Source of the DNA: an uncultured Hyphomicrobiales bacterium | GTDB taxonomy: Bacteria > Bacteroidota > Ignavibacteria > Kapaibacteriales > Kapaibacteriaceae | Assembly: GCA_964620125.1 (NCBI GenBank) | Contig: CAZUGQ010000003.1 | Span: 89,529-153,528 of the forward strand | Length of the DNA: 64,000 nucleotides | Reading direction: 5' to 3' | Shown here: positions 3,578 to 54,446 of the stretch, in pieces | How the letters are laid out: each line of letters opens with the position of its first letter | How positions within the stretch are numbered: the stretch's first letter is position 1 | Made by a program: the position numbers and the translations under genes | The notes under the pieces: model-generated | What the model saw: only the letters and a program-made list of their open reading frames with translations | The model's database searches: none | Told to the model about the DNA's origin: nothing

Positions 3578-3582
3578 CGAAA

Positions 3583-3609
3583 GTACCGGGACATCTACTC
3601 TCCCGGTAC
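3583..3609. repeat. single palindromic unit GTACCGGGACATCTACTCTCCCGGTAC (same family as 1085-1292)
   Basis: Perfect 8-bp arms TACCGGGA/TCCCGGTA around a 9-nt loop. It lies between convergent genes (2114..3577+ and mltG-) and is probably a bidirectional terminator/REP-like element. Confidence 0.7.
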
Positions 3610-3621
3610 GTCTCCGCTACC

Positions 3622-4593: not shown

Positions 4594-4674
4594 GAGCAAA
4601 AATCGGCTGGACGGATGGTAACGTCTTCTACAACAAACAGAACGCACTTGTTTACTCGTGCCGAATGTATCACA

Positions 4675-4694
4675 AAACGCTTTCAGCGTTTTTG
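4675..4694. terminator. bidirectional rho-independent-type hairpin AAAACGCTTTCAGCGTTTTT
   Basis: 8-bp stem AAAACGCT/AGCGTTTT with A/T runs on both sides. It is located 3' of the minus-strand ABC ATPase gene and 5' of mltG. Confidence 0.45.
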
Positions 4695-4797
4695 CACCTA
4701 TCGTAAATGATAGTCCTTGACCAGCGCTAACTGTTCCGTCGATCCTATCGTACGCAAAGGGCGTTTGCTTTTTGGTACTGAGGATGCTTCAACTGTG

Positions 4798-5688
4798 TCA
4801 TGCTCCTACACTCTTCACGAAGATGTCGTGCAGGCTCGGCTCGGCAAGCTCGAATCTGGTGATGTGCACTCGGTCAATGAACAGTCGTAAAAGGGCATCT
4901 GATGTAAGCGAAGGGTCGGTGATGCGAAGCTCAACCCTGCCTACCGTGGAGCTCACTACCTCGGTACCGGGAACCTCACGCACGGCATCGTCGTTGCCAT
5001 CGTACCTGATGATGACGCGATCACTACGATACTCAGCCTTGATGCTTCGAACGCTCCCATGCAAAATCACTTCGCCGCGGTTGATCAATGCAATGTCATC
5101 ACAGAGCTTTTCTACCTGATCCATCTGGTGTGTTGACAGGAGTACGGTTGTCTGCTCATTCCGAAGTTCCTTCACCGTATCTATCAACAGCTGAGCATTC
5201 ACGGGGTCAAGCCCACTGAATGGCTCGTCAAGGATTACCAGCCTTGGGCCATGCAACAGAGTGCTGATGAACTGCACCTTCTGCTGCATACCTTTCGAAA
5301 GCTCTTCAATCTTCTTACGCTCCCAACCACTAGCATCAAGCTTCTCAAGCCAGAACGCCACTCGTTGTTTTGCTTCGTGCTGCGCAAGGCCTTTCAGGCG
5401 AGCGAAGTACTCGAGCTGCTCGGCAACAGTGAGTTTTTTGTACAGGCCGCGTTCCTCAGGCAAATAGCCGATTCTCTCCTGCGCAAGCTCATGCACAGGT
5501 TCACCATCTAATAAAATTTCACCACTATCTGGTTGAGTGATGTTGGTGATCATCCGTATTAGCGTAGTCTTGCCGGCACCGTTGGGGCCGAGCAATCCAA
5601 AGATTCTACCGGGAACGGCTCGCATGCTTATTGCGTTATTAGCCACATGGTTGCCGTAGCGCTTCACCACATTTCGGACTTCAAGCAT
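4798..5688 (-). CDS. ABC transporter ATP-binding protein (ABC-2/NatA-GldA-like)
   Basis: Walker A GPNGAGKTT, Q-loop, signature LSKGMQQKV, Walker B LVILDEP, H-loop STHQ, plus a C-terminal regulatory extension. No permease gene is adjacent. Confidence 0.85.
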   Translation of the reverse strand: MLEVRNVVKRYGNHVANNAISMRAVPGRIFGLLGPNGAGKTTLIRMITNITQPDSGEILLDGEPVHELAQERIGYLPEERGLYKKLTVAEQLEYFARLKGLAQHEAKQRVAFWLEKLDASGWERKKIEELSKGMQQKVQFISTLLHGPRLVILDEPFSGLDPVNAQLLIDTVKELRNEQTTVLLSTHQMDQVEKLCDDIALINRGEVILHGSVRSIKAEYRSDRVIIRYDGNDDAVREVPGTEVVSSTVGRVELRITDPSLTSDALLRLFIDRVHITRFELAEPSLHDIFVKSVGA

Positions 5689-5863
5689 GTGGCAAGATAG
5701 CAGTTCTTTACAGCTTGATGAGAGGCTAGCGAATTACCAGACCATTGTGCATCGTCGTGGGGCCATGTGGTGTCATGACTCTTCACAATCGTCATGCTTA
5801 AAACGCCAACCTCGAAGCGTGAATACGTAACTTTGGCCGGGCGAAACATGAGGAACACAATCA

Positions 5864-6547
5864 ATGCGGTCATTTAGCGCGGTCTGGAATAGCACCATCA
5901 TGCAGAAATGGGTGATGGCGGTAACGGGCATCGGTTTGGTACTGTTTCTGCTTGGCCACTTAAGTGGCAATCTGCTGGTATTCCTCGGGCCAGATCACAT
6001 GAATTCCTATGCTGTAGAACTCCGTGAGATGCTTCACGGAGCGGCGATATGGGTTGTGCGTTTGGGTCTGCTGCTGTTTTTCCTCCTTCACATTTGGTCG
6101 GGCATCAAACTCGCCCGCCTTAATCGCACAGCAAAGGGGGAGGGGTACGAGCGTGCAGATTATCGAGCATCGACTCTGGCTTCGCGTACGATGATGTATT
6201 CAGGCCTGCTCATCCTTGTGTATGTGATCTACCACCTGGCTCACTTCACATGGGGTATCGTGCATCATGAGTTCTATCATTTCACGGATAAAATGGGTCG
6301 GCACGACGTGTACAGGATGGTTGTGGAGAGCTTCCATCAGCCACTGATCAGCGTTTTCTACGTGGTTGCGATGATCGTAACCGGTTTCCACCTTAACCAC
6401 GCCATCAGCAGTGCCTTCCAAACATTAGGCATCAATCACCCGCGATATACACCCCTGATTCGCATCATCGGCCCCGTGCTCGGTGCCGTGATTGTTCTGG
6501 GATTCCTGTCTGTGCCAATTGCCATCATGACTGGAATCGTGAAATAA
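5864..6547 (+). CDS. sdhC: succinate dehydrogenase/fumarate reductase cytochrome b subunit (b558 family)
   Basis: 227-aa polytopic protein with conserved His-bearing helices ([24 protein letters not shown]). It sits immediately upstream of sdhA/sdhB. Confidence 0.8.
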
Positions 6548-6563
6548 GGGGCTTGAGCAGACT

Positions 6564-8480
6564 ATGAACCTTAATAGTAAGATTCCGTCAGGCCCACTTG
6601 AACAGAAGTGGGACAAACACAAGTCCGAACTCAAGCTGGTAAATCCGGCCAACAAACGGAAGTTTTCCGTGATCGTGGTCGGCACCGGTCTTGCTGGTGC
6701 TTCAGCAGCAGCATCTCTTGCGGAACTGGGGTACAACGTGACCGCCATTACGTACCACGATTCTCCTCGGCGGGCACATAGTATTGCTGCTCAAGGTGGA
6801 ATCAATGCTGCGAAGAACTACCAGAATGATGGCGACAGCATCTGGAGGCTTTTCTATGACACCATCAAGGGGGGGGACTTTAGGGCTCGTGAAGGGAACG
6901 TCTACCGCTTGGCTCAGGTGTCAGTCAACATTATTGACCAGTGTGTGGCGCAGGGTGTTCCTTTTGCTCGTGACTATGGTGGATACTTGGATAATCGCTC
7001 CTTTGGTGGTGCACAGGTTAGTCGGACATTCTATGCTCGTGGACAAACGGGACAGCAGCTGCTTCTGGGTGCGTATCAAGCACTCTCCCGTCAGATTGGC
7101 CTCGGCAGGGTGCGGATGCTCAACCGTCGGGAGATGATGGATCTTGTGGTAATCAACGAGCGTGCTCGTGGCGTTGTTACTCGCGACCTTACAACAGGCC
7201 GAATTGAAACCGTGCTTGCAGATGCTGTTTTGCTCTGCACAGGAGGTTATGGCAATGTCTTCTACTTGAGCACAAATGCCAAGAATTGCAATGTGACGGC
7301 TGCCTTCCGGGCATATAAACGAGGCGCTGTCTTCGGCAATCCTTGTTACACGCAGATTCACCCCACGTGTATTCCTGTGAGCGGCGACTATCAGAGTAAA
7401 CTCACGCTGATGAGCGAATCGCTGCGGAACGATGGACGGATCTGGGTGCCAAAAAAGCAAGGAGACACTCGCAAGCCCTCCGACATACCCGAGAGTGAAC
7501 GAGACTACTACCTGGAACGTAAGTACCCAAGTTTTGGCAACCTCTCACCAAGAGATATCGCATCGCGTGCGGCGAAGGAAGCATGCGATGATGGGCGCGG
7601 CGTTGGCCCGGGCGGTCGGGGTGTATACCTCGATTTTGCTGACGCCATTGCTCGCTTGGGCAGAAAGGTTATCGAGGACCGCTATGGCAACCTGTTCGAG
7701 ATGTACGAACGCATTACTGGTGAGGATCCGTACTCCGTGCCAATGCGTATCTACCCTGCCGTTCACTATACAATGGGCGGTCTGTGGGTTGACTACAACC
7801 TGATGAGTAATATCCCTGGTCTATTCGTTCTTGGCGAAGCAAACTTTTCGGACCATGGTGCAAACCGCCTTGGTGCAAGTGCTCTGATGCAGGGCCTGGC
7901 TGATGGATACTTCGTGATTCCCTACACCCTTGGAGGGTACTTCGGTGAGGTAGGCCCAAGCCCCCTGCCATCATCTGATGCGCCTGAAGTGCGGCAGGCT
8001 GAACAGGCTGCAGCAGACAAAGTGAACAGACTGCTATCCATTAATGGCAAGCGCACACCAACAAGCTTTCACCGTGAGTTGGGTAAAATCATGTGGGACA
8101 AGTGCGGCATGGCCAGAAATGAAAGGGGGCTACGGCAGGCGCTGCAAGAAATACCGGCGTTGCGTGAAGAGTTCTGGCAAAATCTGCATGTGCCGGGAAG
8201 TGGCGCAGAGCTCAATCAATCACTTGAGTTGGCATCGCGTGTGGCTGATTTCATGGAGTTCGGTGAGCTAATGGTCCGCGATGCTCTCCATCGCAACGAG
8301 AGTTGTGGCGGGCATTTTCGTGAAGAGTACCAAACAGAGGATGGCGAGGCCAAGCGGAACGATGAAGAGTATGCCTACGTTGCGGCGTGGGAATATGCTG
8401 GTGAATCTGCAGAGCCAGTCTTGCACAAGGAGAAGCTGGAATTCGAGAATGTGCATTTGGCAACGAGGAGCTACAAGTGA
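6564..8480 (+). CDS. sdhA: succinate dehydrogenase/fumarate reductase flavoprotein subunit
   Basis: Dinucleotide fold [12 protein letters not shown], covalent-FAD region [12 protein letters not shown], active-site HYTMGG, RLGASAL; 638 aa. Confidence 0.9.
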
Positions 8481-9930: not shown

Positions 9931-11969
9931 AGCGCGATCCTACACCAACGCTGCTTGATACGTGGACTCGCCCACCGTTGCCCACTACGGCATGCTGAAC
10001 GAGCGCTAGTCCCAATCCGGTACCACCTGAGGCAATCTCTGACGTATCGTGAACGCGGGTGAATGGCTGGAAGATCGATTCGATCTGTCCCTTTGATTCC
10101 GATTCCGTGGTCAGCAACAACAATACTTGCTTCGTTCGATGTTTGCGTTACGGTGACTTCGATTCTGCGGTCAGTCGTGGAGTATTTCATGGCGTTGCTA
10201 AGCAAGTTCAATACACAGTTCGTTAGTGCATCAGCATCCACGTTACTTACGGCCTGCATGCAGTATTGCTCTGATACGGTAAACTCATGGATTGTGAGTT
10301 GATAGCGTAACATCTGAACGGCCGTTTTCACCAGGAGCACAAGGTCGTACGGTCGCTGACGATAAACCATACCGCCACCTTCGATCTTGGCGTATGCTAG
10401 GGCTTGGTCAATCATCCGCAGCAACCGCTCGCTCTCGCCATCAATGATGTCGAGGTACTTCAGTTCGGTTTCGTTCGTGGTGCGTTGCTGCAGTAGGTTC
10501 GCAAACATGCGAATAGAGGTGAGTGGTGTTTTTAGATCATGTGTGACACCGTTGATGAAGAATGATTTCATGGCAAAGAGTTCCGCCTTTCTCTCTGCTT
10601 CAATGCGTTGCTCCTCAACTGAGTGGTTTAGGGCAAGGCGCTCTAGTTGTTGTTCAGCAGCCAGGAGCAGGCTGTTTAGGAGGTCCAAATCCTCGTCGGT
10701 GTACAACTGCCCTGATCGAAGAGAGCCCAACCGTATCGTGCCATGAACGGTAGCGTCGGCAGTGCAGAACGTTCGCTCGATAGAATGCACAGCAAGACTC
10801 CCATCCTCCTTGACTAGCGTAGTTCCGCTGTTTTCATCGATGAGCTCAATTCGAATTTCTTATGGGGCAAAGGCTGTGGTAACATGGTGGTAGAGCCGAT
10901 CAAGCAAGTCCCGCTGAGACAGTGCTTCGCGTAGTTCCCGAGCTGCCTTGATCTGAGCATCGCGGTATCGATACTGTACGCGAAAGAACAACCAATCCAC
11001 TGCCTGCTGCACTAATCCACGTGCAGGAAAGAAGAGTAAAACATCAATAAGTACGATGCTAGGAGTCAGTACACGCGTATCAATCTGAAGCCGAAAGTAA
11101 TCCATCGCCAGACTCGCGAAGCCAGAGTATATACAAACAGCAATAAGGGTTATCGCAACCTGAACCATACCACGATTCACAATCACATCGATATCCAGTG
11201 CCCTGTCGCGAACGATGCTCGTAGCAAAAGCAATTGGTGCGACTGAAGTAAGAAGTATCGCCCACTCTTCTGGGAACGTTGTTGTTCCCAATGCCTCTGG
11301 AATGATCGACAGAATGATGTACCCACCAGCAGAGATACTTACTCCGCTGATCAGCCACAGCAGTTTGCGGCGGCCCGAGAGATTCTCGGTACGGAAATAC
11401 GTAGCCACAAGCACGGCTAGTCCGACTCCCGAGCTGATACTGAAGACGATTTTCAACCCGTCAATCCAAGCCGTATATACATCTGGTGCAGTGGCGGGAA
11501 AGTGCATGAAGCCACATGCTTCTAGCAACAGAATCACGTTCGCCAAAACAGTGGCGGCACCAATGGAGAAGTAGGCGACTTTGAAAACATCAGAACGGTA
11601 CCACGATCCACGCTGTGGGAACACAGCCACGAAGTGAAGGAGGAGAACGGGCACAAGAAGGTAGCTACCTGCATATACCGACTGCAGAATGGTGTACATG
11701 ACCGGACCAGTAACGTTCTCCGTGCCTGGGGTGGTGCAAACAAGTATGGCAACAGATAGTGAGAGGAAGTGGAAGATCTGTGCGGCAGAGTCGCTTTCCG
11801 TTCGGTGTAAGACCTGTAACGCAAGCGTGTAATACAGAAAACCAACGAAAACGCTGACTACCACATAGGTGGTGCTGAATGGGTTCTCCCACATCTGCCA
11901 TAACCCAATCGCCATGACCAGCGCGATCACGATGTGGAGCACAGTCATCGCTGGATGTACTTTCGCTTT
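9905..11969 (-). pseudogene. sensor histidine kinase (about 10-TM sensor + GAF-like + HisKA + HATPase_c) disrupted by an in-frame TAA and a frameshift
   Basis: Three same-strand pieces. ORF 10860..12101 holds the polytopic sensor and the start of a GAF-like region. The TAA at 10860-10862 is in frame with ORF 9870..10790 (remaining GAF, HisKA HDLKTPL, N-box NAMKYS, G1 DHGIGI). A +1 slip in the GGG run (+strand CCC ~10089-10091) leads into ORF 9905..10123, which carries the G2 box GGTGLGLALV and the true C-terminus. Start trimmed to MKAKVHPAMTVLHIV. Confidence 0.55.
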
Positions 11970-17304: not shown

Positions 17305-19863
17305 ATGAGCAACAAGCACATGTCCATGGTTGTCATTGTCAGCGCACTGCTAGGCGCACTGGTACTGGGTGCTCCCGCATTCTCAGCTGAGGCTGGTGGT
17401 CCACTTGTGTCAGGGATGATACGCTCAGGCGAAGGCAGAGTGGAAATCACCGATGTTAAGGCACTAGCGGACGGAAGAATTGTGATGTGTGGTTGGATGG
17501 AGGTGCCTGTTGCTTGGCCAGCTCCAGGATGGAATCATGAACATGCTGGCGGTTCGGATGGATTCGTGGCTATCGTTTCCAAGAATCTTGAAGAGTTGGA
17601 GGCCTTTACCCTTATCGGTGGTGGATCTGATGATCAACCAACCGCGCTCACCACTGACAGCAAGGGAAACATCTACGTAGTAGGGTGGACCATATCGAAC
17701 AATTTCCCAACATCTGCCAACTCGATCGGTTACCTTTATTCATCTGCCACTGATGGATTCGTAGTTGGATTTACGCCTTTTCTCGACTCACTGCTGTTCG
17801 GTTCCTACATCCGCGGTAATCGTGACGAGTTTCCAACTGATGTTCAGGTGGACGCTGCATCTACCATTTACATCTGCGGTTCAACAAACTCAAATTCCGG
17901 ATTTCCTAATACGAACGGAATATTCAAGACTCCATTTGGTGGCAGAGATGCTTTTGTAATGCGCCTAGGTGCCAATGCCACTTCCGTGTTATTCAGCACG
18001 TACTTCGGCGGCACGGGTGATGACACCTTCAATGGAATGCTGGTTCATACAAACGGAGCAATCTACCTGGCCGGTTCGACAAGTTCTGTAGACTATAAGA
18101 CGTTTCCGGTAATCAATCCATCCACCTGGTGGCAGTACAGCGAACGACCTTATGACTGGACTTTCAACGGAGGAATTACAGACGCAACGCTGGTTATCCT
18201 CTCCGACGATGGAGCACGTGCAATTGCCTCCACATATCTAGGAGGATCTGCGAATGATGCAGCTATGGACGTAGCAGTGATTGATAGCAATATCATATTA
18301 GTTGGCTCAACGCAGTCACCAGATTTTCCTGTTGCGAGCCCAGTCCAGAATCACCTGCGAGGAAGTAGCGACGCGTTTATATCACGCTTCACACAACTCG
18401 GACAGTCTCTGCCCTCGTCTACGTACTACGGTGGGTATGGAGACGAGGTCGGCACATGTGTGCACATCTACCCACCAGGCCAGTATGCAATCGCGGGCGT
18501 TACAACCTCAAGTGATTTCCCGAATGTAGGAATTGGTACAAGTGGTGATCGACAAGGAGCACACGACGGATTTGTGCTTTTCTCGAACATTTCGTCCGCT
18601 AGCTTCGCCACAACACTTGGTGGAACCGACACAGACAGCATGTATGCGATGGCAGTTCAACCAGACCGTGGGGTTGTGGTTGCTGGATGGTCGAGGAGCT
18701 CGGTCATAGAACTCAGTCCATACGCGCTTGAATCCAACCCAATAGGTGTAAGTGCGTGTGCCATAAGAATTCAGCCAGGAAGCGTGAGCCTCATTGATCC
18801 CGTAGGCGACCAGCGTTACTGCGAAGGATCAACAATGCGCGCCACCTGGCTTGGTACTGAAATGCTAACCTCGGATCGTTACACGCTGGAGGCTTCGGCA
18901 GACGGAATCGTCTGGACGGAACTCGTCTCTGACATAAACGCCCAACGTGTCGACTGGGTAGTATCTCCCGTCGTTGAGCTAGGGCAGCGTTACTTCATTC
19001 GGATACGATCGAGTCGCGGACATACAAGTAGAACGGATACTCCATTATGGCTTGACCCAAAGCCAATGATTACGAAAACGCTCCCAGTCGAGGTATCAAT
19101 CTGCCCTGGGGGAAAGACTGTTCTTCGTGGCAACGCTACCGGTGTTGGAATATCGTACCGCTGGCTGGCCTCGGGCTCGGAAATCAGTGGAGAAATTGAA
19201 GATTCACTTGAAGTTGGCCATGGCACGCCGTATGGAGCAGGCGACTATCAGATGCGGTATCGAGCTCTATGTGGAGTAAACGGCATCGTTGGCACAACCA
19301 AGGTTACTGACGGCATACCAACTGAGATTGAGGCACATCCACAGAACGTGGTTGCTAGTATCGGAGGCTCAGCCACCTTTTCAGTACAGGCTACGGGTAG
19401 CAGACTCCAGTATCAGTGGTTTCGAAACAATAGTCTTATCGAAGGGGCTACCCAACGAGCGTATACCGTAGCTTCGGTTTCCTCAGCTTCAGCTGGACAA
19501 TACACGTGCAAAGTGGTTGGCGACTGCGGCGAGGTTACGAGCAGGCCGGGAACCCTTGTAGTATCTGCAACCGGTGTTCATAACAATGAAGGCACTCCGT
19601 TGCGTGTGTTCCCGAATCCAACGAGCGGTACGGTTACAATCTCGCTACGTACATCGGATGGTGCTGTAAGCGAACAATCTTATCCGCGAACACTAACACT
19701 CTTAAACTCCATTGGTCAGGAAGTGCTGAGCCTTCGGATACCCGACGGCCAGGCTGATATCACTTTCGACATAGGTGATTTGTCACCTGGATTATATCTG
19801 ATTTGCCCTGTTTCGCAATCCCGTAATCGAATGATTGACGGACTACAGCTGATAGTCCGGTAG
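17305..19863 (+). CDS. secreted SBBP beta-propeller repeat protein with Ig-like repeat and type-A T9SS C-terminal domain
   Basis: Signal peptide MSNKHMSMVVIVSALLGALVLGAPAFSA. SBBP blades (GNIYVVGWTISNNFP, ...). Ig repeat HPQNVVASIGGSATFSVQATGSRLQYQWFRN. C-terminus FPNPTSGTVTI...GLYLICPV...LQLIVR. Confidence 0.8.
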   Translation: MSNKHMSMVVIVSALLGALVLGAPAFSAEAGGPLVSGMIRSGEGRVEITDVKALADGRIVMCGWMEVPVAWPAPGWNHEHAGGSDGFVAIVSKNLEELEAFTLIGGGSDDQPTALTTDSKGNIYVVGWTISNNFPTSANSIGYLYSSATDGFVVGFTPFLDSLLFGSYIRGNRDEFPTDVQVDAASTIYICGSTNSNSGFPNTNGIFKTPFGGRDAFVMRLGANATSVLFSTYFGGTGDDTFNGMLVHTNGAIYLAGSTSSVDYKTFPVINPSTWWQYSERPYDWTFNGGITDATLVILSDDGARAIASTYLGGSANDAAMDVAVIDSNIILVGSTQSPDFPVASPVQNHLRGSSDAFISRFTQLGQSLPSSTYYGGYGDEVGTCVHIYPPGQYAIAGVTTSSDFPNVGIGTSGDRQGAHDGFVLFSNISSASFATTLGGTDTDSMYAMAVQPDRGVVVAGWSRSSVIELSPYALESNPIGVSACAIRIQPGSVSLIDPVGDQRYCEGSTMRATWLGTEMLTSDRYTLEASADGIVWTELVSDINAQRVDWVVSPVVELGQRYFIRIRSSRGHTSRTDTPLWLDPKPMITKTLPVEVSICPGGKTVLRGNATGVGISYRWLASGSEISGEIEDSLEVGHGTPYGAGDYQMRYRALCGVNGIVGTTKVTDGIPTEIEAHPQNVVASIGGSATFSVQATGSRLQYQWFRNNSLIEGATQRAYTVASVSSASAGQYTCKVVGDCGEVTSRPGTLVVSATGVHNNEGTPLRVFPNPTSGTVTISLRTSDGAVSEQSYPRTLTLLNSIGQEVLSLRIPDGQADITFDIGDLSPGLYLICPVSQSRNRMIDGLQLIVR

Positions 19864-19883
19864 CGCAATTCGAGTTTCCGAAT

Positions 19884-20150
19884 GTTACCGGGAGTGCTCT
19901 TGTCCCGGTACGCAATTAGGCTAAATCGTAGTTACCGGGAGTACTCTTGTCCCGGTACGCAATCATGCTAAATCGTAGTTACCGGGAGTGCTCTTGTCCC
20001 GGTACACAATCGTGCAAGACTGCAGGAACCGGGAGTGCTCTTGTTCCGGTGCGCAAACATGCCAGACCGTAGGTACCGGGAGTGCTCTTGTCCCGGTACG
20101 CAAACATGCCAGACCGTGGGTACCGGGAGTACTCTTGTCCCGGTACACAA
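19884..20150. repeat. tandem array of 6 units (~47-50 bp) each carrying TACCGGGAGTGCTCTTGTCCCGGTA
   Basis: Units at ~19884, 19931, 19978, 20025 (degenerate), 20072, 20121. The inter-palindrome segments are related to one another (GCAATTAGGCTAAATCGTA / GCAAACATGCCAGACCGT), so this is not CRISPR. It lies between the T9SS cargo gene and sufB. Confidence 0.85.
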
Positions 20151-20271
20151 TCATGTACCCCTTCAATCATCCGCAGCAAACAAGCGCCAGCCGTCGGACG
20201 ACGCTGCCACATCTCCAATATAGGACTGATTAAGTCGTATATTGTGCCACATCACAAAGCACGGAGTTGCA

Positions 20272-41675: not shown

Positions 41676-43531
41676 TGATGAACCCAACCAACACTCGCAT
41701 GATCGCGGTCTTCCCCGCGACTCTGATACTTCTTGCGTTCGGACGTACTCTTTCAGCGCAAACGAACGACGTTATCACCGTTCAAGAAATCCGCATTGAA
41801 CGCAATGCCCAGCCCGGCACATACATCACTCTCAGCCCGCCAACCACAGCGATCACGCCCTATACCATGATCTGGCCGCCAACACCACCATCTTCAAGCG
41901 GTCTTGCACTAGCCTCTACGGGAACGAGCAGTCCCTACCAACTGCAATGGGGAGTTGCGGCGGGATTGACGATTGAACTGGTAGAGAGCACGAACGGCAA
42001 CCTGCGGCGTATCGGTTCGCTGAATGAAGGGGGTATTGTTGGTACTCCTGGAGCATACTCCAACGACTTCTCCGGCAGCCGAGACAATTCTTCGATGACG
42101 GCGAGCGGCAACTATGCGCTGATTGGAGGTGGCGAAGACAATACGGCAAGTGGTAACTATAGTGTTGTACTTGGTGGTCAAGACAATACGGCTTCGGGTT
42201 TGAACAGCACCGTTGCTGGTGGTGCAAACAACGTTGCCAGTGGAACAGGAGCGGCCATCCTTGGTGGTACTACAAACTCAAGTGCCGGTGACTACGCCTC
42301 GATAGGCGGCGGTGGCAACAACAGCATCTCTGCCTCCGGTGACTATGGCTTCATTGGGGGGGGGACCAATAACGTTCTTTCTGGCATGGGTGGCTTTATT
42401 GGCGGAGGCGAAAACAATAATGCCAGTGGTTTGTACACGGTGATTGGCGGTGGTGCAAACAACGACGCCACCGATACCGCTGCCGTTGTTGGTGGAGGAA
42501 GCAACAATACTGCCAGTGGCCGACGCAGTGTTGTTGGAGGTGGTGATGGCAACACCGCCAGTGGAATACTCAGCTTTGTTGGTGCTGGAACGGGTAACCT
42601 TGCTAGTGGTCAGGGGGCTGCGGTAGGCGCCGGCACGAGCAATACGGCAAGTGGTCAGTACGCATTGGTTGGTGGGGGTGCTAGCAACACCGTTGGCCAG
42701 AACTATGGCGTTATTGGCGGAGGCCAAAGCAACACGGTAAACACCGGAACGCACAGTGCGGTTGTTGGTGGTGCTAGCAACAGCGTCACAGGTAGCTACA
42801 GCTTCATCGGGGGAGGGCAGAACAACAGCATTGCTAGCGACTATTCTGCTATCCCTGGTGGGCAAGGAATGACGTTAGCAAGTGGCTCAACTGGTTCCTT
42901 TGGTTGGAATGCTACGGGAACCAGCATGAGCATCTCCACGCCGAATGTGTTTGTAGTGGCCAATGCAGATATCTGGCTGGCAAACAACAACAGCAATCAA
43001 GGTGAGCTGAGACTGTTTGAAGCCAATAGCACCACAGGCAGCTTCCCGCCCGCCAATACCAACTACGTGTCTATCCAAGCCCCTTCCAGTACAAATGGCA
43101 ACCTGAACAACACCTACACCCTGCCCGACAGAGTTGGTAGTTCAGGGCAGGTTTTAACCATTGCATCAGGAGCCACAACGACTGCTGCAACCTTACAGTG
43201 GTCCAGTGTGATTAGCCAAAACGTGAACACGGTGAACGTAACTGCTGATGATCAAGCAATCACGGCTGCACAGATGGACGGCATAACGTATCTGCGGCTG
43301 AACTCCGACGGCACTGCCGGAAATCGTACGGTTACATTGGCCAACGGAGTAGTTGATGGCATACGTTTGGTGGTTCGGTGCGTGGCCACGGCAGGCAACG
43401 GAGTCGAGCTGGCAGACGCAGGAAACCTAGCTCTGAATGGAACAATGACGATGGGTAATCAGGATGCCATCGTGCTGATGTGGGACGCAACGAACACGCT
43501 ATGGGTAGAGCTCAGCAGGAGTGACAACTAA
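41675..43531 (+). CDS. paralog of the 39786 gene (YadA-head-like repeats, same N- and C-modules)
   Basis: ATG overlaps the previous TAA (TAATGATG). MMNPTNTRMIAVFPATLILLAFGRTLSAQTNDV. N-module ITVQEIRIERNAQPGTYITLSPPTTAITPYTMIWPPTPP. C-module NRTVTLANGVVDGIRLVVRCVATAGNGVELADAGNLALNGTMTMGNQDAIVLMWDATNTLWVELSRSDN. Confidence 0.75.
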   Translation: MMNPTNTRMIAVFPATLILLAFGRTLSAQTNDVITVQEIRIERNAQPGTYITLSPPTTAITPYTMIWPPTPPSSSGLALASTGTSSPYQLQWGVAAGLTIELVESTNGNLRRIGSLNEGGIVGTPGAYSNDFSGSRDNSSMTASGNYALIGGGEDNTASGNYSVVLGGQDNTASGLNSTVAGGANNVASGTGAAILGGTTNSSAGDYASIGGGGNNSISASGDYGFIGGGTNNVLSGMGGFIGGGENNNASGLYTVIGGGANNDATDTAAVVGGGSNNTASGRRSVVGGGDGNTASGILSFVGAGTGNLASGQGAAVGAGTSNTASGQYALVGGGASNTVGQNYGVIGGGQSNTVNTGTHSAVVGGASNSVTGSYSFIGGGQNNSIASDYSAIPGGQGMTLASGSTGSFGWNATGTSMSISTPNVFVVANADIWLANNNSNQGELRLFEANSTTGSFPPANTNYVSIQAPSSTNGNLNNTYTLPDRVGSSGQVLTIASGATTTAATLQWSSVISQNVNTVNVTADDQAITAAQMDGITYLRLNSDGTAGNRTVTLANGVVDGIRLVVRCVATAGNGVELADAGNLALNGTMTMGNQDAIVLMWDATNTLWVELSRSDN

Positions 43532-43610
43532 CATGGCAAACCGAGTATACATGTGTAACCGAACTCCAGCTAGTCCACCGACTCGTTCGAGAGAAGGCAC
43601 AGGAGTTCGG

Positions 43611-44006
43611 ATGCAGTTGCCTTTGGTCAGTGCAGTTGTTGTCACACTTGCATGGCTCGGGTGTGCTCTACCAGGCATGGCTCAGCAGCCGGTGCTCGTA
43701 AACATGGGAGCTACGATCACCGTTACCGGTGGGGGGCTTCTGTATGTGTCTGGTCCAACGGAAATACGCGCAGGCCGCATCGATGCAATGGACCTCTCAC
43801 AGGTGCGATTCAATGGTCCAATGGCGATTTACACAGGTGGTCTGTACCTGTTTAAAGATGCAACGGGACTCATCACAGGTGATTTGGACATCAAACTCGA
43901 TGGCGTATGCTGGCGGTATAAACCTGGAGTGCTAACCGTTGAAGGAACCATTTACAATGACGGAGAACTCAACAACGACGGAGAAATCGTCATCGGCAAA
44001 CCATAA
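43611..44006 (+). CDS. small secreted protein (about 131 aa) embedded in the fibre array
   Basis: ORF 43521 trimmed to MQLPLVSAVVVTLAWLGCALPGMAQQ (signal peptide). Gly-rich beta-type sequence; ends NDGELNNDGEIVIGKP. No recognisable family. Confidence 0.5.
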   Translation: MQLPLVSAVVVTLAWLGCALPGMAQQPVLVNMGATITVTGGGLLYVSGPTEIRAGRIDAMDLSQVRFNGPMAIYTGGLYLFKDATGLITGDLDIKLDGVCWRYKPGVLTVEGTIYNDGELNNDGEIVIGKP

Positions 44007-44053
44007 TCTGCACGTAGGGTTCTAGGTCGTAAATCTCCTGTGGGGTAAACATC

Positions 44054-45340
44054 ATGCGAACAATCAACACGCTCATTTGCTTCTGCCTATCCAGTGCCAT
44101 TCTTTCTGGTCAGGATGACTCGTACCAAACATTCAACGCAATACGATTGGAGAACAGCAGCAACCCAGGTGCTTTTGTCCAGCTCAATGCACCAACGGGC
44201 CTAACATCCTATAACCTTACTTTGCCCGCAACTGGTCCGTTAAACACCACACAACGTTGGGCCTTCTCTCTGAACGGTTCCAACAATGCCTTGAGTTGGT
44301 ATGCAACACCATTAGGCAACACCAATCAGATTGCTTACTTCACTGGTACCGAATCCATTGTTAGTGGTAGCAACCTGACGTGGAATCCTACAACCCAGCA
44401 GATGGGCGTGTCGGGTACGTTGAACAACACCCTGTTGAGCCTTACAAAGTCAGGTGCAATAACAGGCAACGATACTTTGCTCATGATTACAGCAACATCC
44501 ACTGGAAGTACGGCAATCTCTCAAACATTGCTTGAGCTTAATGCATCAAGTACGTTAACTGCAGGCACTCGGCGTGGTCTTCACATAGCTGTTACCGGTG
44601 CTACCAACAACTATGCAGCCATTTTTGAGTCAGGAAGGGTTGGTGTTGGTGTAGTTGCACCGAATACCACCTTCGATGTTAGTGGCACGACAGCAACTCG
44701 TGAGTTTAACTACACTGCCAATCTTAGTGCTACGAACAACAACGTGGATTTTACTGGTGATGGTAACACGTCTTCGTTCGTCCGGGTTGGCTCAACTACT
44801 TCGGGAACAGTCTCAATTACCGGATTTGCAGGTGGATCAAATGGGAAAGTGCTAACCGTTTACAACGCAACTGGGTACGGATTGCGCTTGGAGCATAACG
44901 ATGCGGGATCTACGGCTGCCAATAGAATAAAGGCTCCTAACAGTACGGACTTTGTAATAATTCCTGGCGCAGCGTACCAGCTTGTGTATTCCGAAACAGA
45001 TCAACGTTGGATAGTAGCCTTTTCAGGACCGGGCGAGATAACGACTCTCGGTAATGCCAACGTTACGGTGACAACAAGCTCTAGCTACCAGCTGCCTTCG
45101 TCAATGTCCTCCTACATTCAAGTTACCAGCAATTGCCCAGGAAACGACTGCTTTGCTACGTTCGAGGATGGCATTTCGCCGGGACAGATTCTGGTTGTTC
45201 AGAATCTTGGTCCCGATATACTGAAATTCTCAGGTTCAAACTTTGCACCGGACAACAGCACCAACCTTCAGGATGACGAGTCAATACCCTTTATCTGGAA
45301 TGGTACGAAGTGGGTGCAAATGGCGGAGGCATCAAACTAA
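44054..45340 (+). CDS. secreted fibre-array family protein with two copies of the C-terminal WVE-type module
   Basis: Signal peptide MRTINTLICFCLSSAILSGQ. N-module FNAIRLENSSNPGAFVQLNAPTGLTSYNLTLPATGP. Internal module GKVLTVYNATGYGLRLEHND...AAYQLVYSETDQRWIV. Terminal GQILVVQNLGPDILKF...DDESIPFIWNGTKWVQMAEASN. Confidence 0.7.
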   Translation: MRTINTLICFCLSSAILSGQDDSYQTFNAIRLENSSNPGAFVQLNAPTGLTSYNLTLPATGPLNTTQRWAFSLNGSNNALSWYATPLGNTNQIAYFTGTESIVSGSNLTWNPTTQQMGVSGTLNNTLLSLTKSGAITGNDTLLMITATSTGSTAISQTLLELNASSTLTAGTRRGLHIAVTGATNNYAAIFESGRVGVGVVAPNTTFDVSGTTATREFNYTANLSATNNNVDFTGDGNTSSFVRVGSTTSGTVSITGFAGGSNGKVLTVYNATGYGLRLEHNDAGSTAANRIKAPNSTDFVIIPGAAYQLVYSETDQRWIVAFSGPGEITTLGNANVTVTTSSSYQLPSSMSSYIQVTSNCPGNDCFATFEDGISPGQILVVQNLGPDILKFSGSNFAPDNSTNLQDDESIPFIWNGTKWVQMAEASN

Positions 45341-45599
45341 TGATGCCACAATGTTTTCTCAATAAGAGTTGCCGCTCGACTGTTTCCGTGATTCGTAGCA
45401 GGTTCGGCACCTTTGCTGTTGGAGAATCCATCCTAAAGGGTAGCCTACTTGATACAAGTAGCGAAAATTACGGCTGGAAAGCCAATAGGTGTACACTGGA
45501 TCGCGTGCACCCAGCGTACTGCCGGGCAACCACAACGCTGATGATCAACTTCCGAGGGGTTCACGTGGTACGTGATGAGGGAAGTGTGGTGATGGTCAA

Positions 45600-45687
45600 T
45601 ATGGGAATGTGGGAATGTGGGAATATGGGAATATGGGAATATGAGAATATGAGAATGTGGGAATGTGCAAATGTGGGAATGGTAGAA
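45600..45687. repeat. simple-sequence repeat: ~11 tandem copies of an 8-bp unit (TGTGGGAA/TATGGGAA/TATGAGAA) ending at the start codon of the next gene
   Basis: Direct reading of 45601-45695: ATGGGAA TGTGGGAA TGTGGGAA TATGGGAA TATGGGAA TATGAGAA TATGAGAA TGTGGGAA TGTGCAAA TGTGGGAA TGGTAGAA TGCAGACA. Several ATGs in different frames lie inside the repeat. Confidence 0.85.
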
Positions 45688-47807
45688 TGCAGACAATAGG
45701 AACCAATGTTCCGAGATGTCTGGGCAGGCGAGTGCGCCATATCGTATTTGCCTGTTTGTCCATGTCCTTTGCCATGTTCTCGCATGCCGCTGCTTACGCT
45801 CAGCATCTTGAGAACAGAGCCACGGGCACTGTTCGTAACTCCGGCACAATCCGGTTTCGCAGTGATTCGGGGAAGTATAAAAACGATGCTGCCTATACCA
45901 ACATCACTAATAACGTAATCCAGTTTGAAGGGTCAAACAACCAGTTCACGGACCTCTCCGGACAAATCGTGGGCACCACTGCTCTTGGACAGAATCCGGC
46001 ATGGCGTGTTCCTGGAATGGTTCGGTACAGCAATCCAACTAGCGCGATGCAGTACGTGCAAAAACGATACTACACCGACTTGGAGATGGCGGATAGCTCT
46101 TCAAAGTGGATACCAGACAGCGTTTTTGTAGGGGGCAGGTATACGATCTTCCTGTCCGGTCCGAGAACCTATAACGGAACCTTCTTCTATGATGGCTCAC
46201 AGCCACAAGACATCATGCAGGAGAAGGAGTTAAGTGGCACTACCAACCGTTACAACAACATAACGTTGCTTCATAGCCCCAAGAATGTGCGTTCAGGCTA
46301 CGAAGTACGTATGGATGGAATATTCCTCAATGATACGCTGAGCCCCTTGTATGTTGAAGGCGACTTTACATGGGGTTCAAACTCATATGTGAATGCACCG
46401 GTAACGGTCTGGGCTGGTGGCAAACAAACCACAGGATATGGTGTTACAGAGTTACGAGCTGACGTAGAAGTGCAGAATGGACTGTTCCTCGTAGCAGATG
46501 ATGCCGACACCGTGACCATCTTTCCAACGTACGAGTTGAGGCAGCAAGCTGATCCAGCCGCCCTTTTTGCCATGGGGCGCAACACACGCTTGTTAGTGTT
46601 GGGTGACTATCGCAATCTGTATGGTCCGCTCACGAATAGCACGTTTGATACCACGTCGCTCGTTGACTACGCCGGAGTACAGGATCCGCAGATAATGCAG
46701 GCAACTGCAGCTACACACCCGTATGGACATCTGCGCACTTCCAACTCCGTGAAGAATGCCAACGGAGATGTCCATGTGGCTTCTACGTTGAGTGTAAACG
46801 ATACGAATGTTGTTATGGTGCCTCACACGATGAGTCTCACTCTCGGTGCTGCTACCTACACGAATAACGCCGAAGTGATTGGTGCCTTCCGCCGAGTGTT
46901 GGCGGGTGCTACCACCACGAATGCATATACATTCAATAACAGCGAGACAACAGCACTGTTCGTTACCGTACCCAACCAGCTCACACTCGATGTACGGCCG
47001 CAAACACGCCCGAACGACTACGATCCTACTACCGACATCTTCCGAAAGATCACGGTAACACACGACGGTAATTGGAAGGCAACGATCAGAGTGGGGTATA
47101 AAGCCGAAGACATTCCAAACACCTGGGTGCCAAGCACGGCCGAACGCTTGCTCAAGATGTACAACGCCTACCCGCCACCTAATGAATACTCCATAAAGCT
47201 CACACCTACCGTGCCGCCAACGTACATCCGACGTCCACTTGCACAAAGCACGGGCATTGCTTTTATTGAGTTGTTCGGAATCGAAAATCAAGGTCCGGAC
47301 AATCTTCGACTTGATAATGGAAACGATCTGCTGCTACGTGCAAGCCGCGACACACTCAAGGCTGTTGCCTCCGGGCGGTGGAGTAACCCATTTACGTGGG
47401 ATGAAGCCCGTGAACCAGAACCTGAAGACAGAGTTGTGATTGACGGATTCACCGTTCACACTGGATACATACGTGCCAACGACAACTATGCTGTCCGTGA
47501 AGCGTGGCCGGACAGCATGGCTCTGCAGGTAACCATTGGCACATCACCAAACAGTGCCTTGCTGTTTGGTTATGAAAGCCCTGGAGTTTGGGACGCTTTC
47601 TCGCTGGTTCCTAACTCATCCGTAAATCTCATCACGCGCCGTATTGCTCCAGCGTTTGTTCAGGCGGACGTTCTTGACCAAACAGCGGCCGATATAGATG
47701 GTGGTCTGATTGTTTACCGCGGAAGCACGTTCCTGTCGCCGAATCTCATTCTCGCACCTAATGCTACCGTAAACAATGCCGGTACGCTTGTAGTGGGGGT
47801 GCCCTAA
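45687..47807 (+). CDS. large secreted protein of unknown function (paralog of the 47894 gene)
   Basis: MQTIGTNVPRCLGRRVRHIVFACLSMSFAMFSHAAAYAQ signal peptide. The upstream in-frame ATG at 45657 lies inside the SSR. N-terminal region GTVRNSGTIRFRSDSG...VIQFEGSNNQF aligns with GVIKNTGMIKIRGDAS...HIHFEGTSRKM of the next gene. Confidence 0.65.
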   Translation: MQTIGTNVPRCLGRRVRHIVFACLSMSFAMFSHAAAYAQHLENRATGTVRNSGTIRFRSDSGKYKNDAAYTNITNNVIQFEGSNNQFTDLSGQIVGTTALGQNPAWRVPGMVRYSNPTSAMQYVQKRYYTDLEMADSSSKWIPDSVFVGGRYTIFLSGPRTYNGTFFYDGSQPQDIMQEKELSGTTNRYNNITLLHSPKNVRSGYEVRMDGIFLNDTLSPLYVEGDFTWGSNSYVNAPVTVWAGGKQTTGYGVTELRADVEVQNGLFLVADDADTVTIFPTYELRQQADPAALFAMGRNTRLLVLGDYRNLYGPLTNSTFDTTSLVDYAGVQDPQIMQATAATHPYGHLRTSNSVKNANGDVHVASTLSVNDTNVVMVPHTMSLTLGAATYTNNAEVIGAFRRVLAGATTTNAYTFNNSETTALFVTVPNQLTLDVRPQTRPNDYDPTTDIFRKITVTHDGNWKATIRVGYKAEDIPNTWVPSTAERLLKMYNAYPPPNEYSIKLTPTVPPTYIRRPLAQSTGIAFIELFGIENQGPDNLRLDNGNDLLLRASRDTLKAVASGRWSNPFTWDEAREPEPEDRVVIDGFTVHTGYIRANDNYAVREAWPDSMALQVTIGTSPNSALLFGYESPGVWDAFSLVPNSSVNLITRRIAPAFVQADVLDQTAADIDGGLIVYRGSTFLSPNLILAPNATVNNAGTLVVGVP

Positions 47808-52267: not shown

Positions 52268-54310
52268 TTATGCCGATGGCATTTTCAAGGCGAAGATTGC
52301 GCCAGGTCCATCATGATCCACATACTCAATGGTTGCATTCATGCGTTGCGCCATGCGTTTTACTAGGTACAGTCCAAGCCCAATACTGTCCTCACCCCCT
52401 GTTGGGCGAGCACTCAAGCGAGCATACTTGGTGAAGAGTTTTGCGCGCTCAGCAGCAGGTACTCCCGGACCCGCATCTTGCACATGAACGGCAACTTCCT
52501 TGTTCTCCGTGAACACCGTGATTGTGATGGTGCTGTCGCGTGGACTATACTTAATGGCATTCGATATCAGATTATCCAAAACAGCATCAACGATTGAGTG
52601 GTCGGCGTAAGCCCACGCCTCGCCGGTACTTTTTACAAGGATGTTAATCTTCTTTGAGTAGGCTCTAGCTTCATAGCGCTCAACGGCACGATGCGCCATG
52701 TGCACGATATCCAGTTTGTCCAGACTTAAACCATTGCTTCTCCTATCCGTGCGGCTTACTTCAAGAAAGGCATGCACCGTGGCGATCATTCGCGTTACAG
52801 CTGATAGGAGTTCTTTGCAAACATCCAACACATCGTCGCGTCCAAGAACATCATAGTGTGCGATGATGCTTTGCAGCATGGTGCGCATGTCGGCCAGTGG
52901 ATTGCGTAGGTCGTGAGCAGCGATTGCCATGAACTCATCTTTCTCAGTTGCCAATTCCGAAAGCTCCTTGTTCATGCGAGTGAGCTTTTCGTTGGCCGCA
53001 ACCAGTTCCACATTTCTCAGGCGTTGTATTTCATCTTCCTTTTCTTTTCTGTCCTTTTCACGTGCCGCCTGTAACCGACGCATGCGTGTTTCCATGCTGT
53101 CTGCATGCTGTTGTGTGTAAGCCGATGCCCATGCAGACATCAGCTCATATGCTTCACGTGTAGCGCCAACGCCTGCTTGCGCTCGGGCGAGTTCAGAAAA
53201 CGCACGTAACGTGTCAACATGTGCTTGCACGGCAGCCAGGTAATCGCGCGCCTTCGTAAGTACTGAAATGGCCTCCTTGTATTTCCCTTGATCGTTGTAC
53301 ATTCTACCGAGTACCAGAAGCCAATGCCCACAGGCATACCTATCCCCTTCCATTTCACTGATTGATAGGGCTTCATTCAACAGTGGCTCTGCCTTTTCGT
53401 ACTCCTGTTGACTCACATACATCTGCCCGAGGTTTCCCAGAACCTTACTGCGAATGCTTTCAAATGGATAGCGCTCAAGGTAGGTTTTTGCATCGAGCAA
53501 GGAACTGATTTGAGCCGTTTTGTCGCCCAGTGATTCAAAGATCGAGGCAGCATTGCTCTTTACTATAGCAATGACCATTTGTACTGCCGATTCTATTGCA
53601 GCTGCAGTGCTTTCCTCGAAGTATCGAAGTGCCTCGTCTCTGTTTCCACGCCGAGCATGCAGTTGAGCCAGGTGGGATGCAGATTGTGCCAATCCACTCA
53701 TGTTTCGATAATCACGTTCGATATTGTAGCACTTACTGAAATATTCCAGTGCACGCGCATCATCGTCACGGCGCATACAGAACTCAGCGTAATTATAATA
53801 CACCGTAGCAAGGCCAAGGGGATCGCCAATGGCCTCGCGTAACTCAAGTGCTGCCTGATAGCTCTGGTCGGCCCTGTCCGTTTCGCCGAGTGAGTCCAAT
53901 ATGCCTGCTCGCAGCGTCTGCAAACGAGCAGCAACCAATTTGTTGTTTACCTCACCTACCTTCTCATACGGCTCAAGTACCGTGAGAGCCTCCCGCAGGC
54001 GGCGTTGCCGCATAAGAATTGCAGCGTGTGTATATGCAATCCACGCTTGAGCTGAATAATTGTCTCCTGCGCAGGCTCGGGCTTTATTAAGCCATTCGTA
54101 GCTACTGTCGAATTCGGCGTAGTTGTGAAAGTGCAGAGCAAGAACGCAGTAGAACTCGGTTTTCAGTTCAACATCACTACATGACTCGGCAGCCGATGCG
54201 GCCAGTTCACGAGCGTTTCGGATTCGCTCCGATGATGGGTTGGTGATCAGGTCACGGCGAACGGTGGCCAAGACGGCACTATAGTCCGAGGGTTGATTGA
54301 GTTCTATCAT
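52268..54310 (-). CDS. cytoplasmic TPR-repeat sensor histidine kinase (TPR x ~8, coiled coil, HisKA, HATPase_c)
   Basis: C-terminal H-box IAAHDLRNPL, N-box ISNAIKYSP, G1 DAGPGV, G2 GLGLYLV. The N-terminal two-thirds are TPR-like (YELMSAWASAY, ALRYFEEST...). Start placed at MIELNQ within ORF 52268..54364. Confidence 0.75.
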   Translation of the reverse strand: MIELNQPSDYSAVLATVRRDLITNPSSERIRNARELAASAAESCSDVELKTEFYCVLALHFHNYAEFDSSYEWLNKARACAGDNYSAQAWIAYTHAAILMRQRRLREALTVLEPYEKVGEVNNKLVAARLQTLRAGILDSLGETDRADQSYQAALELREAIGDPLGLATVYYNYAEFCMRRDDDARALEYFSKCYNIERDYRNMSGLAQSASHLAQLHARRGNRDEALRYFEESTAAAIESAVQMVIAIVKSNAASIFESLGDKTAQISSLLDAKTYLERYPFESIRSKVLGNLGQMYVSQQEYEKAEPLLNEALSISEMEGDRYACGHWLLVLGRMYNDQGKYKEAISVLTKARDYLAAVQAHVDTLRAFSELARAQAGVGATREAYELMSAWASAYTQQHADSMETRMRRLQAAREKDRKEKEDEIQRLRNVELVAANEKLTRMNKELSELATEKDEFMAIAAHDLRNPLADMRTMLQSIIAHYDVLGRDDVLDVCKELLSAVTRMIATVHAFLEVSRTDRRSNGLSLDKLDIVHMAHRAVERYEARAYSKKINILVKSTGEAWAYADHSIVDAVLDNLISNAIKYSPRDSTITITVFTENKEVAVHVQDAGPGVPAAERAKLFTKYARLSARPTGGEDSIGLGLYLVKRMAQRMNATIEYVDHDGPGAIFALKMPSA

Positions 54311-54446
54311 CGAAAAACACGTTGCTAAGTTGCAAGAGCAATTTACGGAGGTATACACCCCCAACTCATGCCGGCATGGGCAAGGAAAGCTTACTATATT
54401 GCGCCGCTTTTCGAGGTACCTTCTTCAGCATGGAAAACACTCGCGT

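Follow-up and report, generated by a model that had tools for sequence, protein, structure and literature searches.

An imperfect 8-bp tandem array next to the start codon of a gene for a secreted protein from a Kapabacteria-like genome: a possible member of a family of repeat hairpins at cistron junctions

For a handful of host-adapted pathogens, switches made of short repeats are well understood; for environmental bacteria they hardly are. Several repeat types found near genes can be compared with the one described here: the STRR heptamers of cyanobacteria, reportedly described by Mazel et al. in 1990, the CTCTT repeats in the leader-peptide coding region of the Neisseria opa genes, said to go back to Stern et al. 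in 1986, and the intercistronic REP/BIME hairpins of enterobacterial operons, reportedly the work of Newbury et al. in 1987. In Haemophilus influenzae, the (ATCTTTC)n repeats of hmw1A are the left arm of a hairpin in the 5' untranslated region (5'-UTR) (PMC12721329). The repeats of hmw1A and hmw2A are perfect, number at least 11 and vary in populations, and their processing by RNase III has been demonstrated (PMC12721329, PMC8262952). TAACTGA heptamer arrays are found in Beggiatoaceae, Cyanobacteria and Bacteroidetes, in forward orientation and within a few nucleotides of a start codon. Close relatives without these repeats have shorter gaps, and both a link with gene rearrangement and a role in translation have been proposed (PMC4679880). 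The GGGNATC repeats of Xanthomonas and Nostoc form quadruplexes and are placed upstream of open reading frames (ORFs), mostly on the antisense strand (PMC4692102). Here we analyze an 8-bp tandem array at the start of a gene for a secreted protein of 706 amino acids (aa). It is found in a stretch of 64,000 nt, which we call the window, from an uncultured bacterium deposited as Hyphomicrobiales and placed by GTDB in the Kapaibacteriaceae (assembly GCA_964620125.1, contig CAZUGQ010000003.1, positions 89,529 to 153,528 of the forward strand).

Our preferred reading is that this tract is a degenerate member of a family of tandem-repeat hairpins located between cistrons, which would act in the mRNA leader as a slow "tuning knob". 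We hold it tentatively, at somewhat less than an even chance. An earlier note on this DNA had described an 8-bp simple-sequence repeat fused to the start of a secreted-protein gene, and the repeat is real. It is detected by Tandem Repeats Finder (Table 1), and a pattern of two consecutive units has ten matches in the window, all of them in the tract, while shuffled sequences are expected to give 0.63 matches and none of 100 reached ten. Single units are found elsewhere in the window at chance level only, and the unit was not found in the 64 related loci searched. The consensus unit is AATRTGRG, and the units follow each other in the order AATATGGG, AATGTGGG (twice), AATATGGG (twice), AATATGAG (twice), AATGTGGG, AATGTGCA and AATGTGGG. 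Identical units are neighbors at positions 2–3, 4–5 and 6–7, which indicates past slippage of single units, with duplications that postdate the point mutations. The differences among units are mostly A/G transitions, which retain the ability to pair with U, and the most diverged units are the terminal ones. The longest stretches with perfect 8-bp periodicity have 23, 26 and 20 bp, each of them less than 3.3 units.

The tract ends at the start codon of the 706-aa gene, ATG 45687, which falls within AATGCAGA, the second of the degenerate terminal units. This start (MQTI...) is aligned with the start of the closest relative (MNTI...), so the tract abuts the ancestral start codon. The predicted signal peptide comprises residues 1–38 (MQTIGTNVPRCLGRRVRH-IVFACLSMSFAMF-SHAAAYA) and would be cleaved before QHLEN. 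Orthologues share the mature N-terminus AQHLEN, and in an alignment of 44 sequences the family is conserved from Q39 on, while the signal peptide is variable. An AlphaFold2 model of the protein (mean pLDDT, the predicted local distance difference test, 86.8) is an all-beta, solenoid-like structure with a low-confidence N-terminal helix. These features agree with the secreted product proposed in the earlier note, which was also right about the unit length, not divisible by three, and about the out-of-frame ATGs within the tract. Other details have to be corrected. The codon at 45657, taken for an in-frame ATG, reads GTG, and 45663 is where the tract has its in-frame ATG. The product of 716 aa corresponds to a mechanical ORF starting at that GTG; the recorded product has 706 aa and starts at ATG 45687. 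Upstream of both codons, TGA 45642, which arises from the AATATGAG variant unit, closes frame 0 inside the tract. Since ATG 45687 and the full signal peptide are located downstream of the tract, the number of units cannot switch the main frame.

The array is complementary to the beginning of the gene which follows it. The duplex between the array, kept intact, and the 120 nt after the AUG has a predicted energy of −59.0 kcal/mol. Other 120-nt segments of the same DNA give −37.6 ± 6.1 kcal/mol (none of 297 is as good), and composition-matched shuffles of the downstream sequence give −42.9 ± 5.2 kcal/mol (2 of 300 are as good). When the region 45640–45789 is folded (−57.2 kcal/mol, z = −4.48, none of 200 shuffles as stable), the predicted stem encloses the AUG. 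It joins the 3' units of the array with a segment of the signal-peptide coding sequence (Table 1), which resembles a degenerate inverted copy of the array units. The same stem is retained in the 211-nt and 481-nt folds.

Arrays of a similar kind are found in related genomes. The closer relatives surveyed for them are L003, L004, L006, L057, L058 and L061–L064. The window and the related loci contain about 23 arrays of 7–8-bp units at cistron boundaries of the operon, and such boundary zones represent about 20% of the sequence. All but one of these arrays are at or near a cistron start, the exception following the last gene of the operon. All the short-unit arrays found have units of 7 or 8 bp; none has 6 or 9. 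The units vary by locus: AAAGCGG, GGTTCCA, GCAGAGA, GTGCCTG, AGCGAGY, GCTCGTA and AATACTCG are examples, and the AGCGAGY and GCTCGTA families recur at several sites in several genomes. Most arrays of the relatives consist of a forward array and its reverse complement, which give very stable predicted hairpins (z scores of −9.6 in L058, −7.9 and −5.7 in L063, −8.2 in L004 and −6.2 in L064). The window has a forward array at the cistron boundary, with a putative partner which is degenerate, dependent on G-U pairs and significant as an RNA duplex only.

In several of these genomes, an array arm and its reverse complement code together for a signal peptide (L063 255–420 and 2423–2600, L058 10001–10170, L064 1307–1460, L004 1–110 and 2118–2240). 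One arm gives the charged N-region and the other gives the hydrophobic core, and the arms always match, though the units differ between genomes. For example, in L063 a purine-rich arm encodes MSSEQRAASSEQRAASSEQRAESREQRVKN and its complement encodes SVFSALCSLLFCALCLVLSAPAFA. At L058 10003–10091, L063 265–320 and 2425–2504, and L004 2122–2153, arrays separate the ATG from the signal-peptide core. The L058 gene starts with ATG-(GGTTCCA)×12.7, and no other start codon is found from there up to the hydrophobic core. The gain or loss of a single unit in these arrays would put the gene out of frame, which is the strongest point in favor of the earlier note.

Some other repeats of the relatives should be mentioned. 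In L062, positions 10254–10306, (CTCGTAG)×7.6 is found directly past the stop codon of the gene which ends the operon, and a short inverted copy comes after it. The hairpin of this array is at the 3' end of the operon and faces the convergent gene of a sensor kinase. The same unit family is also present at L062 6045–6080 and L004 4291–4342. A longer unit of 27 bp, GTCATTCCGAGTGAAGCGAGGAACGG, which encodes VIPSEARNG, has 5.3 copies in one genome and a single copy in an 88% identical relative. Its loci are L061 65–206 and 2326–2425, and L057 490–520, and an inverted 36-bp version is found at the 5' end of the next gene.

Viral contigs were scanned for (GGGAATRT)n, and four of them matched. AATRTGNN arrays recur in viral contigs L068 and L070. 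The first of these, IMGVR_UViG_3300045988_110344, has a structural module (1882–8021) with genes for portal, protease, major head, major tail and amidase proteins, and its portal shares 66% identity with the portal of Bacteroides phage Bacuni_F1. Each of its intergenic gaps longer than 90 nt is filled with forward and inverted arrays of 8–9-bp units (AATGTGCT, AATATGCT, AATATGGA and AATGTGGG). One of these arrays matches the window tract over 79 bp with 85% identity. Bacuni_F1, a cultured relative of this phage, has tight intergenic gaps, and no DNA match to the window tract was found in GenBank phages. Since the arrays are present between structural genes of a phage, they are general junction elements, not specific to variable surface genes.

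These data suggest the following mechanism. Tandem repeat elements with 7–9-bp units would sit at cistron junctions, in the present Kapabacteria-like lineage and also in at least one phage of the Bacteroidota type, typically as a forward array and its reverse complement, which may form a long hairpin around or just past the start codon. In the window, the insertion of a 428-aa gene between a 161-aa gene and the 706-aa gene would have broken the tight stop–start coupling of the relatives. The array is probably transcribed as an A/U-rich leader of the 706-aa cistron, and its 3' units may form base pairs, including G-U wobbles, with the part of the gene which codes for the signal peptide, about 100 nt downstream. 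The AUG would then be enclosed in a structured leader, which might set translation initiation, mRNA processing or stability, or both. The number of units would change by slippage over evolutionary time without flipping the reading frame, hence the comparison with a tuning knob. High-frequency switching by the tract in its present imperfect state is unlikely. The repeat at the insertion junction, the start codon and signal peptide behind it, the excess of complementarity to the sequence that follows, and similar arrays in relatives and a phage contig are shown here; the transcription of the tract, its fold in the cell and its effect on expression are inferred.

Several points weigh against this interpretation. 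The predicted stem of the window is far weaker than the hairpins of the relatives and depends on G-U pairs. A DNA-level search for inverted repeats around the tract gave no partner, the complementarity appearing at the RNA level with G-U pairs only. Folds of the whole region beat shuffles just modestly, with z scores of −2.4 and −2.8. A sigma-70 promoter scan gave no plus-strand site near the tract, with a consensus which may not be that of the lineage, and transcription could start downstream of the tract. As the unit is not repeated anywhere else in the window and is missing from the 64 related loci, membership in the family is argued from architecture and from the match with a viral contig, not from descent. 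Finally, a neutral origin at the junction is possible.

The tract is located at the right-hand end of an insertion which, among the loci compared, is found in the window only. This insertion consists of the 428-aa gene and a 346-bp spacer. The GC content of the 428-aa gene is 0.479, and that of its neighbors is 0.51–0.54. In all 17 relatives checked the gene order is a 628- or 428-type gene, the 161-aa gene, and the 706 and 729 genes, with stop and start codons which overlap or are less than about 160 nt apart. In the closest relatives the 4 kb upstream contain no such 428-aa gene; more distant relatives have a gene of the 428 type before the 161-aa gene. No homology was detected between the spacer and the related loci or the remaining window. 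The possibility that the spacer is a remnant of the 161-aa gene was rejected (tblastn E > 10). The terminator-like hairpin at the end of the 428-aa gene is not evidence of function. Scans of the window with Rfam and for tRNA genes gave no matches. The features of the region are collected in Table 1.

Table 1. Features of the repeat region and its surroundings. Positions are those of the window.
Feature	Position	Strand	Evidence or remark
Core 8-bp tandem array	45598–45681	+	Tandem Repeats Finder: period 8, 10.5 copies, 88% matches, score 105
Two degenerate terminal units, AATGGTAG then AATGCAGA	45678–45693	+	Direct sequence reading
Gene for 706-aa secreted all-beta (solenoid-like) protein	45687–47807	+	P0001, 100% identical, 706 aa
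In-frame TGA (45642–45644), followed by in-frame GTG 45657 and ATG 45663	45642–45665	+	ORF list, codon map
Array 3' units, left arm of predicted long-range RNA stem	45655–45671	+	RNA folding
Right arm of predicted stem, UUUGCCAUGUUCUCGCAU	45768–45785	+	Inside coding sequence of signal-peptide hydrophobic core
Canonical G-quadruplex motif, GGG-N5 five times	45603–45637	+ (sense)	Regular-expression scan
Window-specific insertion between 161-aa and 706-aa genes	44007–45686	+	Array at right-hand end
428-aa gene	44054–45340	+	Pfam match: Phage_depo_C beta-sandwich
Orphan 119-aa ORF spanning the spacer	45340–45699	+	ORF list; gene call P0070 in source record
Weak terminator-like hairpin, 7-bp stem, tail ACAATGTTTT	45328–45347	+	Consensus scan

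The 706-aa gene is part of a 22-kb run of plus-strand genes coding for large secreted proteins, some of which carry the C-terminal sandwich domain of phage depolymerases. Pfam and NCBIfam scans gave no family match for the 706-aa protein. When its model was compared with the PDB using Foldseek, a weak resemblance to tailspikes and autotransporter passengers was found (best E-value 0.036). No relatives of this family were found in the viral contigs searched, and the homologues are recorded as Ignavibacteria or Kapabacteria in their source entries. The 161-aa protein (gene 43521–44006) and the 706-aa protein share a short motif at their C-terminal ends (...NNDGEIVIGKP and ...NAGTLVVGVP, each followed by the stop codon), which may be a shared C-terminal signal. 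Distant orthologous loci, L025 and others, end in ...GTIEVGPP. The gene of a TPR-HisKA-HATPase sensor kinase (52268–54364, minus strand) converges on the end of the surface-protein cluster, and keeps this position in the relatives (L058 16650–18731).

Other sequence motifs were also detected. A motif T(T/C)TACGGATTG is conserved about 100–250 nt upstream of the distant orthologues in L025, L026, L028, L031 and L032, and it may be a promoter element of the lineage. As a promoter lead in the window it was dropped: TACGGATTG has 62 matches against 47 ± 7 expected, and the nearest one (45468–45477) is not above chance. Two further tandem arrays are found in the window just upstream of plus-strand ORFs, at 1079–1288 (29 bp × 7.2) and 19857–20151 (47 bp × 6.3). 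Both of them are built from one palindrome, TACCGGGA-N9-11-TCCCGGTA, so they can be described as tandem REP-like hairpins.

The stability of the arrays can be studied in the relatives. According to protein-cluster look-ups, the species of the window is known from a single contig, and exact-protein look-ups of window genes matched no contig. The species of L058 has been assembled in four samples, and the protein is identical on the four contigs. The loci of this species include material from three JGI samples, 3300072128, 3300072982 and 3300072126. L058 and L059 are two assemblies of the same species. They differ by a 50-bp deletion which truncates an 843-aa cluster gene (L058 3627–3676) and by a 4-bp indel in an antiporter gene (L058 20609), and not one of their tandem arrays differs. 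The alignment of the three loci L058–L060 likewise shows identical arrays, despite other indels between them. The nine arrays inside ORFs of relatives which were read through from a start codon are all in frame, so a combination of ON and OFF alleles has not been detected among related genomes. Two candidates were rejected. A frameshift in L062 is due to a 1-bp insertion outside the array, in a contig with 3× coverage. P0004 and P0005, considered as OFF alleles, are intact ORFs whose gene calls merely begin at a later start. Within clusters of proteins at 90% identity, arrays differ by in-frame blocks of 39 bp or by wholesale replacement, and the DNA of the genomes involved is just 82–88% identical.

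The earlier note interpreted the tract as a contingency locus. In the version considered here, frequent slipped-strand mispairing would switch or grade the 706-aa surface protein, together with the genes co-transcribed downstream, through the length and structure of the leader or through upstream ORFs. We consider this unlikely, although it keeps a real share of the probability. Its basis is sound in part: the tract, with a unit not divisible by three, is found at the 5' end of a gene for a secreted protein, in a cluster which encodes beta-helix proteins of the surface type, identical neighboring units record earlier slippage, and the relatives have frame-sensitive arrays before the signal-peptide core, as in Neisseria opa. 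The restriction of short-unit arrays to 7 or 8 bp points in the same direction. Furthermore, the deletion of one unit in the window would fuse an upstream ORF in frame 1 to the 706-aa ORF, and the heptamer tract of hmw1A acts from the 5'-UTR (PMC12721329). What does not hold is the classic architecture. The array is imperfect (88% matches) and its longest perfect tract has 26 bp. Unit number sets neither the reading frame nor the spacing of −35 and −10 elements: start codons shifted in or out of frame by slippage would not affect the main ATG and the complete signal peptide, both downstream, and a tract of 84 bp is too long to be a −35/−10 spacer. The alleles do not support switching either, as the arrays of the L058 species are identical across the assemblies compared, relatives differ by 39-bp blocks instead of single units, and every ORF-internal array read through is in frame, the L062 frameshift being outside the array. 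In addition, similar arrays are found between the portal, capsid, tail and lysin genes of a phage and at the 3' end of an operon, where a switch makes no sense. A neutral by-product is another alternative, which we find improbable: the tract would be a scar of slippage or template switching left by the insertion of the 428-aa gene, tolerated upstream of an intact start codon and now decaying. It would explain the exact location at the right-hand junction of the insertion, the degenerate units, most diverged at the ends, the absence of the unit elsewhere in the window and in relatives, and the complete turnover of arrays between genomes which are 82–88% identical. Heptamer arrays have been linked to gene rearrangement in a published comparison (PMC4679880). 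However, the tract is clearly more complementary to the downstream coding region than the background would predict, and unit variation consists mostly of A/G transitions that still pair with U. Besides, arrays recur at cistron starts across genomes and phage, with arms that match despite their different units, which implies a constraint or a specific generating mechanism.

The remaining alternatives have much lower probabilities. It is very unlikely that the tract is a quadruplex, or a site for an RNA-binding protein (a CsrA-like protein at GGA, ribosomal protein S1 or a cold-shock protein), controlling initiation at AUG 45687. Five GGG tracts, separated by 5-nt loops, are found on the sense strand, the core of the unit, GGGAAT, is similar to the GGGAATC repeats of Xanthomonas, which form quadruplexes (PMC4692102), and GGA is present in every unit. 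Proteins of this kind have been proposed for TAACTGA arrays (PMC4679880), and the tract is A/U-rich (GC content 0.39) in a genome which seldom uses Shine-Dalgarno sequences. The window contains two quadruplex motifs, where shuffles give about 1.8. When folding takes quadruplex energies into account, the isolated array is predicted to form a quadruplex (−9.3 versus −5.7 kcal/mol), but in context the hairpin wins. The units of the relatives, such as GGTTCCA and GCTCGTA, have no G-runs or GGA, so this explanation does not cover the class as a whole. An array of transcription-factor sites, or a promoter element whose spacing is set by unit number, seems extremely unlikely. Direct repeats upstream of a gene and a sensor kinase gene at the end of the cluster, conserved in relatives, would fit such a role. 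Even so, the array of sites was rejected, as the 8-bp spacing is out of helical phasing and the orthologous loci have no tract or have unrelated units; a promoter element is opposed by the length of the tract, which exceeds that of a −35/−10 spacer, and by the promoter scan, with no promoter-like site on the plus strand. Finally, the tract might be the coding 3' part of a real 119-aa gene, or an assembly artifact, and both are almost certainly wrong. The 119-aa ORF is a gene call in the source record. It starts at an ATG which overlaps the stop codon TAA of the 428-aa gene (TAATG), runs through the whole array and ends 13 nt past ATG 45687. Frame 1 is open across the entire spacer, while the other two frames have 6 and 8 stop codons in the 258-nt part outside the array. 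The codon log-likelihood of this part is +8.6, below the 5th percentile of real genes (12.3; mean 26.7); off-frame windows have a mean of −36. The tail encoded by the array is an acidic low-complexity sequence, and no true homologue of the ORF was found among 1.84 billion representatives. It could still restore translational coupling across the spacer. As for an artifact, the presence of variant units and a length of 84 bp, less than a typical sequencing read, argue against it.

In a Kapabacteria-like lineage, arrays of 7–8-bp units are repeatedly set at the starts of genes for secreted beta-helix proteins. If these arrays act on mRNA, they would be a new means by which long operons set the relative expression of their genes. 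In the case of slippage, free-living bacteria would have a surface-variation system, perhaps directed against phages. A wider hypothesis may be proposed as a speculation of low probability: palindromic elements with 7–9-bp units would form a family which colonizes the junctions of surface-protein operons in Kapabacteria and of structural operons in Bacteroidota phages, marks or mediates the insertion of cassettes, and has been co-opted for signal peptides, with the purine-rich arm as N-region and its complement as core, in genes which could be switched by slippage of a single unit. In a limited literature search we found no description of paired arrays which encode signal peptides and recur in phage. 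For annotation purposes, a repeat beside a start codon, with a unit length not divisible by three, is insufficient evidence of phase variation.

Among the known systems, REP/BIME elements also form stable hairpins where cistrons meet and vary from one close relative to another, and they influence the stability of mRNA. However, REP elements are not made of tandem 7–8-bp units and do not overlap signal-peptide coding sequences. The opa repeats resemble the arrays of L058, L063 and L004, which are inside the signal-peptide coding region and have units that are not multiples of three. On the other hand, the window tract is upstream of the ATG, outside the ORF, no out-of-frame alleles have been seen, and the arrays of the relatives are imperfect and paired with inverted copies. 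With the TAACTGA arrays, the window tract shares forward direct repeats of 7–8 nt which adjoin a start codon in a non-coding gap, here of 346 bp. The difference is that in those genomes one unit is found at many loci, while the window unit is unique in 64 kb, is absent from the 64 related loci, and units differ by locus. The GGGNATC and STRR repeats are likewise G-tract repeats of 7–8 nt between co-directional ORFs, transcribed and with variable copy number. Like the GGGNATC repeats, the motif in the window has at least four G-tracts which might form a quadruplex, and the Xanthomonas unit GGGAATC shares the core GGGAAT with it. Nevertheless, those repeats are dispersed genome-wide and prefer four units, whereas the window has a single sense-strand array of ten units. 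The closest similarity is found with hmw, where repeats which are not multiples of three are also located upstream of the start of a large secreted beta-helix gene of the adhesin type, the right arm of the leader hairpin is downstream, and expression depends on the leader, not on the reading frame. In the window the units are imperfect and have 8 bp, with a modest predicted stem, and the bacterium is uncultured and of environmental origin. By analogy, the leader hairpin of hmw1A would be the nearest mechanistic counterpart of this tract.

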